IMG/VR virus record: IMGVR_UViG_3300001528_000360
Location: 88,430 to 152,429 of that record
DNA length: 64,000 nt
Reading direction: 5' to 3' (one strand)
From: a virus
Lineage: Duplodnaviria > Caudoviricetes
The translations under genes were made by a program, and so were the position numbers. Position 1 is the stretch's first letter; each line of letters starts with the position of its first letter. Below are positions 24,416-27,285 of the stretch, piece by piece. Under the pieces are notes generated by a model. The model ran no database searches. It saw only the letters and a program-made list of their open reading frames with translations, and was not told where the DNA came from.

Positions 24416-27199
24416 TTATTCAATTCCTTCTGAATCTATATTAATCTCAATTGTATATACATCATCATCTTTAAGTTTTCGATTTACATCGAAAGTTTTA
24501 TTAAGTTCTGTACAATGTAAATTGAAATTATAATAATCTTCAATAGAATCAAAAGTAGGCGTAATGTTTAGATAGTCTTTCTTATTTCCATAGAAAGATT
24601 CAATATCTTTATCGAAATTAAATTTAAACCCTTCAGGTTCATGAGAACCATCAAAATACAATCCATCTGTTTTACAGAATGGTGTCATGATGGCACTTGT
24701 ACCAGGGTCTGATGTCAGTAATGTTCACACAAGGTCGTTACTCTTATGTAGTTCTCTTATGAACTTCTCTATATCATCTATAGAGCTCAGACTATATCTT
24801 CATCCTTTATTAAGGAGCCCTCCATTTCCATCTACTTAGATGTACGTGCTAAGCACTAGTCGTTGAACCTTCATAATCAAAAACTGCTATCTGATCATCA
24901 TCTGAATAAATTATATTAGAAGACTTAATTTTCTTTTCATCTATTTTAGTACAGGAAATTTCTGCTATATTATTTTCTTTAAGAAACTCAGAAAGTTTCT
25001 TAATAGCTTTATGAAATTTTCTATTCCCTTTAGATGTAAAGAAGAATTTTGTACCTTCAGGAACTCTTATATCAGGAGCTTTTAATTTATATTCAAATAT
25101 AGCTGTAAGTCTAAATATTTCATTTTCACAGCTATTGGGTTTAGGATGATCATTAAAATCATATTCATAAGCAGTTGTAATAATTCCTATATCTGTATCT
25201 TTTGTTGAATACCGATATAACATATATATTCTCCTTTATGTTGATTATGCTTGGTTGCTGATTATCTTATAAAAGACTTTCCAGCAATTAAGAGAGATTT
25301 GTATAATGTATTACTACATTATGCGGCTAATAATCTACCGCAGACATTAATATCTAAACGGCCTAAATAACTTGGATCTAACATATATCTTCATATAGAA
25401 TCGTTAGTTCTATACCGTTCAATAAAGAACAGCTCTATATTTCTATAGAGATGAGACTATATCTTCAACTTAGTTAAGTTGCTCTCCATTTCCATCTACT
25501 TAGATGTACATTTAGTCGTTGAACTTTTCAATCTGCATTAATAAGAAATTCACCATCCTCATTATAGTTAGAGATAACATAAATAGTATCAGAATTTTCC
25601 TGGCTTTCACCAATATATCCTAAACTAATTGTACTAATCGGTGTAAGTGCTTTCTTATCGTCTACTTTAACATCAAGTAACATAGGTAGGTCACCATATT
25701 TTTCAATAAGGTCCTCCATGTTCTTAACAAAAGTACTTGCCATTACAATTTTCATTTTTTTCTTCCTCCTATATATAATACAAATTGATTTAGCTGCTGA
25801 TTGTCTACAGCATTACCTGTTTAGAGATTCCAGCAATTAAGAGAGTTACGTAGCTTATTTTCAAACCACGATATTTAGTACTAATGTTATTATCATTATT
25901 ATTTCCTAAGGAATTCGGTCCTTTAAATGTAATTTTGAGCTTTCCAAATATGTCAAGGTCATTTACACTATCATCATACCTTAATAAGCCTGACTTATGC
26001 AACTGAGATAGTATAAGATCACCTTGGAACTTAAATATTTCTTCAACATTTTTAAGTGTTGCCTTTGATCCCATTCCAATAATTCTATTTACTCTATCAC
26101 TAAACGTCTTCGTGAGAAGCGATGCTATATACTCATTACATCTAAGACGTTTATTTTCCAAACTCATATTATCTTTCTTTCTTAGATCAGAGAAATTCTG
26201 AACCAACCATCTTACAATTGAATAAATATTCTTTTTATGAATAGGATGTAATTTAAGAATACGTTTTGTAGTATCATCAATCATACGATCAAAGAATACC
26301 ATAGTATTCAATCCTTTTTCATATTGAGAATTTTTATTAATCGTTCCGATTGCTCCTAATTCTTCAATCCAGAAATCTTTATTTTCTAAGTTATCAATAG
26401 ACATTCGATTTGTCATTAATGTTAACAACATGAATGCCATAGATTTTACATACGTATATTTATAAAAGAAATGCTTATTTACTTCTAAGAATAACTTTGA
26501 GTTTACACTAAAGTAAATAAACTCTTCTGTATTTTCAGGACTTTCAACAAATCTAATAATTTTATCAACTGAATAATATTTTAAAGTTTTCTTTAGTCCA
26601 ATCTTTGCTAAATAAAACAAAAGAATATCTACATTCTTACGGAACACAAGAATTGTATACGTAGGAGCTGTAAATGATTCTCCTGTTGTAGATTTTGCTG
26701 TATACTGTTTTACCTTAATATTAATCGGCATCATAGATTTTAATACAATAGCCGACTTTGTTGTATAAGATGCAGAGTCAACGATCTGATATAATAAGAA
26801 ATATTTATTTCCTTTAATCTTATAATACAGATTATCATCAGGAACAGGAATCAATAATTTCTTTGTGATATTTTTAGATTCATCATTGCATTCCAGATGA
26901 AATTTCAGACGAAGTTCTGCATATCTTGAATCCTGAAGATACATATATCTTGTAGGATCATTCTTCTTTGTTTTCGTTCTTGATTTGGCATCAATATACT
27001 CACTCGTATTAATTTCAGCTTCATTGGTTACATAATCATATCCAAGGAATTTTACATACTCAAGAACTTCAAGAGACTTACAACAATCAACTATATAATT
27101 AACCAAGTCATCGTCGTACTCTCGATTAATTAGAGGGTAGTTAAATCGTTCTTCATTAGGATTTTTATATTCTTTGATGAATTTATACATACGATGCAT
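24416..27199 (-). CDS. rpoB: Phage RNA polymerase beta N-terminal-half subunit (3 exons, ~559 aa)
   Basis: Exons 27199-25865, 25381-25337, 24715-24416 give KGPNSLG..KYRG|LDPSYLGRLDINVCG|TSDPGTS, equivalent to the beta GPGGL..RDVHxSHYGRIC..TPEG region. Confidence 0.8.
24716..25336 (-). mobile_element. Group I intron with a non-endonuclease ORF in P6
   Basis: P at ~25280, Q ~25254, R ~24857, S ~24790; P1 GCGGU/GCCGC; ends G. Confidence 0.88.
24849..25223 (-). CDS. Intron-encoded hypothetical protein (no homing endonuclease motif)
   Basis: AAGGAG RBS; 124 aa; FFFTSKGNRKF and IIYSDDDQIA motifs; no HNH, GIY-YIG or LAGLIDADG. Confidence 0.75.
   Translation of the reverse strand: MLYRYSTKDTDIGIITTAYEYDFNDHPKPNSCENEIFRLTAIFEYKLKAPDIRVPEGTKFFFTSKGNRKFHKAIKKLSEFLKENNIAEISCTKIDEKKIKSSNIIYSDDDQIAVFDYEGSTTSA
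25382..25864 (-). mobile_element. Group I intron with a small non-endonuclease ORF in P6
   Basis: P ~25829, Q ~25794, R ~25513, S ~25456; P1 CGUGGU/GCUACG. Confidence 0.88.
25528..25755 (-). CDS. Intron-encoded small hypothetical protein
   Basis: AGGAGG RBS; 75 aa; DLIEKYGDLP resembles small phage hypothetical proteins. Confidence 0.75.
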   Translation of the reverse strand: MKIVMASTFVKNMEDLIEKYGDLPMLLDVKVDDKKALTPISTISLGYIGESQENSDTIYVISNYNEDGEFLINAD

Positions 27200-27285
27200 C
27201 AATCCCCTCATAAATTTTGTTTAAAAAAATTAGTGCAGGGTGTAAAATGATACACCCTGCACTAAGCATATATTTAGTTTTATCT

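Follow-up and report, generated by a model that had tools for sequence, protein, structure and literature searches.

A small acidic protein gene in the P6a loop of a group I intron interrupting a phage RNA polymerase gene

The DNA analysed here, a stretch of 64,000 nucleotides (nt) referred to as the window, covers positions 88,430 to 152,429 of the viral record IMGVR_UViG_3300001528_000360 (Duplodnaviria; Caudoviricetes) and carries, on its minus strand, a gene for the N-terminal half of the beta subunit of a non-virion RNA polymerase, of the AR9-like phage type, that is interrupted by two group I introns, A and B. Intron B, located 45 nt downstream of intron A, holds in its P6a loop an open reading frame (ORF) of 124 amino acids (aa), P0001, which the initial annotation had singled out as a possible non-endonuclease cargo gene. 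The source is a 152-kb IMG/VR viral record (62% complete; 29.7% GC) with at least 23 Rfam-detectable group I introns, based on a covariance-model scan. The interrupted gene is a homolog of gp105 of AR9/PBS1 (30% identity over 96% of the ORF, tblastn), matches PHROG 2943 (polymerase) with an E-value of 3e-24, and has its closest relative on contig L025, to which exon 1 is 69% identical. Coordinates of the features are collected in Table 1.

Both ends of intron B can be placed to the nucleotide. Exon 2 ends ...GTC TGC GGT at position 25337, and the exon sequence UGCGGU (25342 to 25337) pairs with the guide GCCGCA in a P1 helix that, as read from the sequence, places a U.G pair at the 5' splice site. 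The upstream reading frame ends six codons into the intron at an in-frame TAA (25321 to 25319), just past the guide. At the other end, the last intron nucleotide is a G at 24716 and exon 3 begins ACA TCA GAC CCT GGT; the U.G pair at the 5' splice site and the terminal G at the 3' end are features of both introns A and B. Removal of intron B restores the reading frame (...GRLDINVCG/TSDPGTSAIM..., with the fused-exon joint reading ...AATGTCTGCGGT/ACATCAGACCCT...), and the spliced gene keeps the spacing of AR9 gp105, with the motif LHPSYLGRL and eight residues between GRL and DPG. In L025, the coding sequence is uninterrupted over both intron sites (...YRGIDPSYIGKIDINVCGTSD...). The P1 pairing, the terminal G, the AR9 spacing and the continuity in L025 all agree with the interval that had been assigned to the intron.

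Between these junctions, the core of intron B consists of P1 (UGCGGU/GCCGCA), a P2 hairpin, P3 through the block AAUUGCUGGAAA...AAUCAGCAACCAAG (P4-P6), two IA-like hairpins between P7 and P3' followed by P8, and a 3' part made up of J8/7-P7' (GAUAUAGUC), P9 and a P9.1/P9.2 tail common to the introns of L020, L004 and L025. The core motifs and helices match those of about 25 sister introns of the record, which score 75-102 bits, and the minimum free energy fold of the ORF-deleted RNA gives P2, P4-P5, P7, P8 and P9. RF00028 hits intron B as two halves that score 30.3 and 20.9 bits, short of the gathering score of 50, which is an effect of the 379-nt insert in L6. Judged by its anatomy and junctions, intron B is a complete group I intron, and it is most likely a working IA-type intron in an essential early gene, its self-splicing being predicted.

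The P0001 ORF has its own ribosome-binding site (RBS), an AAGGAG Shine-Dalgarno sequence, as had been reported in the initial annotation. A 9-bp stem (CAUAAUCAA/UUGAUUAUG) closes the insert in the P6a loop, and the final 11 codons of the ORF (..FDYEGSTTSA and the stop) pass through the P6a 3' strand, P6', J6/7 and P7. In about 20 ORF-less sister introns, L6 is a P6a hairpin of 13-23 nt, and in six further sisters the P6a loop holds an ORF of 186-293 aa closed by a stem of 10-17 bp. Five of these six ORFs match Pfam HNH_3, four of them also matching NUMOD4; the sixth, outside the window, has an HNH motif by eye, the Pfam matches covering the other five. The intron B slot has the same layout as the ORF-bearing sisters, which bears out the earlier placement of an intact ORF at the P6 position where the sisters carry HNH genes.

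Demonstrably, the slot accepts other, unrelated small non-endonuclease ORFs. The P6a loop of intron A (13-bp stem; P1, CGUGGU/GCUACG) holds a 75-aa acidic orphan ORF, P0002 (25755 to 25528; isoelectric point (pI) 4.2), preceded by an AGGAGG RBS, for which no relatives were found by a word-index search or by tblastn of 50,697 cultured-phage records. One intron of contig L020 (844-1800) has ORFs in two peripheral loops, one of 66 aa in L6 and two more, of 29 and 73 aa, in the P7.1 region; a Pfam scan assigned no family to the 66- and 73-aa ORFs, and P0002 has no significant similarity to the small ORFs of the L020 intron. Separately, the 3' tail of intron A (25387-25466) shares 88.8% identity with a segment annotated as part of gyrB in Bacillus phage vB_BspM_Internexus, and this gyrB probably holds an unannotated intron of the same family as intron A.

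Table 1. Features of the interrupted RNA polymerase beta gene and of intron B (positions in the window)
Feature	Coordinates	Strand	Basis or remark
Exon 1, RNA polymerase beta N-terminal half	25865..27211	-	ends ...STKYRG; tblastn, AR9 alignment, PHROG 2943
Intron A, group I, 483 nt	25382..25864	-	RF00028, 47.4 bits; site continuous in L025
Micro-exon (exon 2), 45 nt, encodes LDPSYLGRLDINVCG	25337..25381	-	matches AR9 LHPSYLGRL and L025 IDPSYIGKIDINVCG
Intron B, group I, 621 nt	24716..25336	-	junctions confirmed against L025
Internal guide sequence GCCGCA	25322..25327	-	pairs with exon UGCGGU to form P1
P6a closing stem, 5' strand CAUAAUCAA	25241..25249	-	directly after AAUCAGCAACCAAG (P4'/P6)
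Shine-Dalgarno AAGGAG	25231..25236	-	7 nt upstream of ATG
ORF P0001, 124 aa, acidic alpha/beta protein family	24849..25223	-	own RBS, relatives, model
P6a stem, 3' strand UUGAUUAUG	24872..24880	-	within last ORF codons
P6'/J6-7/P7 5' strand AGGUUCAACGACUA	24857..24870	-	also codes ..GSTT of the ORF
J8/7-P7' core GAUAUAGUC	24790..24798	-	covariance model and sister introns
Exon 3, starts TSDPGTSAIMTPF, runs to stop	24416..24715	-	AR9 alignment, L025

P0001 is a real gene under constraint. An exhaustive profile-free search recovered relatives amounting to 27 cluster representatives at 50% identity, mostly 107-158 aa in length and all from metagenomes. The intron-borne copies of L002 and L004 differ at 58% of synonymous sites with a ratio of nonsynonymous to synonymous substitution rates (dN/dS) of 0.12, and a strong RBS is kept in every intron-borne copy. 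The finding of 27 cluster-level relatives for a 124-codon ORF in 30%-GC DNA, combined with the dN/dS, argues that P0001 is not a chance ORF. The motifs LYRYE, GIL, FE..L..P, YFTEKGNRKF.KAI and I.Y.D.YQV are conserved in the family, with invariant residues at G13, L47, T63, G66, D108 and Q111; D108 is the only invariant acidic residue in the family alignment and histidine is conserved nowhere. Members are single-domain proteins without a DNA-binding module, and a search for longer proteins found no fused forms. The longest of the 27 representatives, P0030 (1156 aa), was rejected as a relative, as it shares only a short repeated YFDEKGQR motif worth about 7 bits per repeat. The pI values of the family are mostly 4.1-6.6 (acidic to neutral), compared to 8.4-9.5 for the six HNH proteins of the sister introns.

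None of the 27 members has a Pfam match at E <= 1, and thus none matches HNH, NUMOD, GIY-YIG, LAGLIDADG, PD-(D/E)xK, EDxHD, His-Cys box or transposase families, in line with the absence of HNH, GIY-YIG and LAGLIDADG motifs noted at the outset. PHROG and PADLOC scans of the same members gave single chance-level matches and no family for P0001, tblastn found no match to it in the 50,697 cultured-phage records, and hhalign of the family against the HNH intron ORFs of its own genome returned a probability of 0.1%. An AlphaFold model built on the family alignment (a single-sequence run with a predicted local distance difference test (pLDDT) score of 39.8 was not used) has a pLDDT of 92.7, a predicted template modelling (pTM) score of 0.84 and the topology beta-alpha-alpha-beta-alpha-beta-beta-beta. 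Foldseek of this model against the PDB gave a best E-value of 0.7 with no nuclease among the hits, and VIA-align against 48,161 representatives gave a best Z of 3.9 with no nuclease among the 50 best rows, such that Pfam, hhalign, Foldseek and VIA-align all failed to match P0001 to a known homing endonuclease or a degenerate fragment of one. The single match in BFVD is a member of the family. In the ESM Atlas, the same fold occurs both in clusters of hypothetical proteins from bacteria and, as an additional domain, in clusters of GNAT and HAD enzymes (template modelling (TM) scores of 0.71-0.90 for both).

Relatives are both intron-borne and free-standing, which answers in two ways the question of whether the homologs of this ORF are linked to introns. 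Intron-borne members always start directly after AAUCAGCAGCCAAG, with an RBS, and occur in RNA polymerase beta (the window copy), in gyrB after GKMP (L002/L003), in gyrB after GIFP (L004 and L026, the latter from the other main branch of the family), in a family-B DNA polymerase (L010) and in a conserved gene matching own-genome positions 85825-86385 (L018-L020). The free-standing members constitute at least seven lineages. Those of L005/6, L007, L021/22, L023/24 and L027/28 lie in arrays of small genes, often overlapping a neighbour by 4-11 nt; a further copy is found on L008, and those of L011-L017 are divergent from an intron-rich terL. Those of L030 (1395-2392), L032 and L033 (3558-4395) lie between tRNA genes in phage tRNA arrays and are 53-97% identical to P0010. 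In a profile search of genome contigs (sub-alignment), the L032 and L033 contigs were binned with Clostridia and Acetatifactor metagenome-assembled genomes, which suggests a Lachnospiraceae-type gut host. No conserved partner gene accompanies the free-standing copies, with only L007 and L023 sharing a small upstream membrane protein, and almost all neighbours of the relatives are without a Pfam or PHROG match. The family has one copy in this record and none within the 9.3 kb fetched for L025.

The two kinds of location are interleaved on the maximum-likelihood tree of the family (P0029, a long branch, is omitted), which requires four changes of state (intron-borne or free-standing), two or more of them forced by well-supported branches. 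Proteins that are 54-58% identical sit in the unrelated genes for RNA polymerase beta and GyrB, at target sequences without visible similarity, and two distant members, P0004 and P0014, occupy the same gyrB site after GIFP. The L002 and L004 introns, inserted 18 nt apart in gyrB, are identical from P3 to P6, near-identical from P7 to P3' and about 80% identical in the ORF, while P1 and P2 differ. At the downstream gyrB site of L004 (3536-3797) lies an ORF-less twin intron, the P6a loop of which retains the RBS and ATG of the L002 copy, a scar that testifies directly to the loss or transfer of an ORF at the slot. From the shared intron body and the scar it follows that the ORF has moved, along with the intron body, between neighbouring sister introns.

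The best reading of these data, held with some reserve, is that P0001 is an accessory gene carried as a passenger, relocating as a cassette from one sister intron to another. This reading is ranked first because the protein is acidic, small and single-domain, without a conserved set of nuclease metal ligands; because there is no nuclease-like fold or profile match and the fold also serves as a domain in metabolic enzymes; because many relatives resemble ordinary co-translated small genes and close relatives sit in unrelated target genes; and because the slot takes other non-endonuclease ORFs and exchanges ORFs between introns. Sequence and model together indicate that the product is most likely a small, acidic, stand-alone accessory protein, probably binding a protein or ligand, and neither a nuclease nor a maturase. 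Several observations weigh on the other side. The locations of the family are classic niches of homing endonucleases (P6a loops in at least four essential genes, tRNA arrays and the intron-rich terL flank of L011), and the sharing of one gyrB site by P0004 and P0014 looks like target-site association. The GC content at third codon positions (GC3) of P0001 is 0.12, compared to 0.09-0.17 for the six HNH intron ORFs and 0.23 for exon 1. The basic conserved strand-loop-helix motif T-x-K-G-N-R-K, together with R4, Y106, D108 and Q111, could form a phosphate or nucleic-acid site. The same observations feed the reading ranked second, in which P0001 founds a new family of homing endonucleases, or serves mobility or retention without nuclease activity, and promotes the spread of its gene to intron loops, tRNA arrays and sites beside conserved genes; this we consider possible and less likely than a passenger. 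In favour of such a role are the slot shared with the HNH genes of sister introns, the intron-borne copies in RNA polymerase beta, gyrB (two sites, three lineages), PolB and another conserved gene, the free-standing copies in tRNA arrays and beside terL, the co-occupied gyrB site, the interleaved tree, the patchy distribution (a single copy in the record and none in the part of L025 fetched), the HNH-like GC3 and a conserved basic helix-cap motif that might constitute an active site together with D108 and Q111. There is also a precedent in the I-Bth0305I endonuclease family, which first came to light in metagenomic and genomic sequences (PMC3239194). Against it stand the acidic to neutral family, its small members (about 110-125 aa) without a DNA-binding module, the one invariant acidic residue and absence of a conserved histidine, the lack of profile or fold similarity to nucleases in all four comparisons, the 58%-identical proteins in unrelated target genes and the many free-standing copies that overlap their neighbours and look translationally coupled. 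Were it correct, P0001 would found a mobility-protein family with a fold absent from solved structures, colonising such sites in uncultured gut jumbo phages as an endonuclease or a recombination-biasing factor; we keep this as a possible, less likely candidate because the family occupies intron loops, tRNA arrays and the terL flank.

A maturase, an RNA chaperone or a protein acting more widely on structured RNA (introns and tRNA precursors) is improbable. Such a function would suit a gene that lies within a ribozyme here and among tRNA genes in other phages, and would also suit the conserved basic patch KGNRKF.KA, but the family is acidic overall, many homologs lie at loci without an intron or tRNA, at least seven lineages are free-standing, about 25 sister introns manage without such an ORF in a genome with a single copy, and the overlap of the ORF with P6'-P7 sets translation in competition with folding. 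Further, known group I maturases derive from LAGLIDADG proteins, for which the 27 members gave no Pfam match. The last alternative, that the ORF has no function and is either a remnant in decay or a frame open by chance, has its small size and lack of annotation in its favour and nothing else; it is effectively refuted by the dN/dS, the motifs conserved over 27 clusters, the confident fold and the strong RBS of every intron-borne copy, and is excluded in practice. The choice posed by the initial annotation, between safe-harbour cargo and an unrecognised mobility factor or maturase, is thereby narrowed: the evidence leans somewhat towards cargo, an acidic family with many homologs outside introns speaks against a maturase, and a mobility factor stays on the list as the weaker of the two principal options.

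If P0001 is a passenger accessory gene, a mechanism for its expression and spread can be outlined, in which the role of the protein, expression from the intron RNA and the recombination route are what we infer. Translation would start from the ORF's own Shine-Dalgarno sequence, on the pre-mRNA or on the excised intron, and the 9-bp P6a stem, by joining the ends of the insert, would allow the ribozyme to fold. As the tail of the ORF overlaps P6'-P7, translation and splicing of any one RNA molecule would be mutually exclusive. The gene may relocate as a cassette through recombination via the slot-flanking ribozyme sequences that are conserved among sister introns, or alternatively by co-conversion when nearby endonuclease-bearing introns home. 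The intron, in turn, would provide early expression and protection from imprecise deletion.

The closest known counterparts are phage IA-type introns with an HNH ORF in P6/P6a (I-HmuI-like, HNH_3 plus NUMOD4), which share with intron B the ribozyme type, the slot and the P6a stem, and likewise have an ORF with its own RBS, an ORF end overlapping the core and a location in an essential jumbo-phage gene; six are present in this genome. P0001 differs in being unrelated to known endonuclease families, acidic, half the size and equipped with many relatives outside introns. Non-endonuclease genes, rps3 among them, are also carried by some group I introns of fungal mitochondria, which resemble intron B in having a host or accessory gene as passenger in an intron loop; they differ in kingdom, intron subgroup and protein, and the P0001 family also moves between introns of different genes. 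IStrons, such as CdISt1 of Clostridioides difficile, are group I introns fused to IS200/IS605 transposase genes. Like intron B, they combine a bacterial-type group I intron with protein cargo other than a homing endonuclease, but what they carry is a 3'-terminal transposase module that gives mobility, compared to a single small P6a ORF in intron B, and Pfam found no TnpA/TnpB or other transposase domain in P0001. For an intron without its own nuclease, trans-homing offers a route of spread, as in the T4 nrdB intron (I-TevIII), which is mobilised by mobE (PMC2790892). Unlike in that system, intron B has no endonuclease gene in this genome near enough for co-conversion; at this locus, the closest HNH intron is the one of L025, 9 nt away. 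The intron endonuclease gp210 of PhiPA3, which lies in an RNA polymerase gene of a jumbo phage, is described as a weapon in competition between phages (PMC11620839), and high intron loads with HNH and other endonucleases are reported for huge gut phages (PMC12880540).

L025 lacks introns A and B, and has instead an HNH-bearing intron of the same ribozyme family (5377-6345) inserted 9 nt downstream, after TSD/PG. Its P1, P3/P4, P7, J8/7 and P9 tail are plain in the sequence, and the failure of cmscan to detect it is a limit of sensitivity with long ORF inserts. Intron B may disrupt the recognition site of an L025-type endonuclease, a form of intron-versus-intron competition at overlapping sites. 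The 45-nt micro-exon of the window must serve both introns, as the 3' exon context of intron A and as the supplier of P1 to intron B, and a similar arrangement, an 18-nt micro-exon (IRGKLP), separates the twin introns of L004 gyrB (about 3498-3515). Outside the introns, a perfect 15-bp GC-rich hairpin resembling a bidirectional terminator lies just upstream of the RNA polymerase beta start (27230-27265).

The reviews consulted regard the proteins encoded in phage group I introns as homing endonucleases; according to one on bacterial group I introns, the ORFs lie in loops or overlap the core, and a figure in it presents the intron-encoded proteins as homing endonucleases (PMC3984707). The P0001 family is a conserved, confidently folded, non-nuclease-looking occupant of the same slot, using it in several essential genes and also living free in phage genomes, and no published description was found of the family or of non-endonuclease protein cargo in the P6a loop of a phage intron. 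The twin-intron and micro-exon arrangements show fast intron turnover in these phages. If P0001 proves to be a mobility protein, it would represent a new endonuclease or mobility fold and a possible sequence-specific tool; under either reading, the family is a defined, testable target. If P0001 is a passenger, phage introns would be exchangeable gene slots in essential genes, expressing and sheltering accessory genes that are missed by annotation pipelines.

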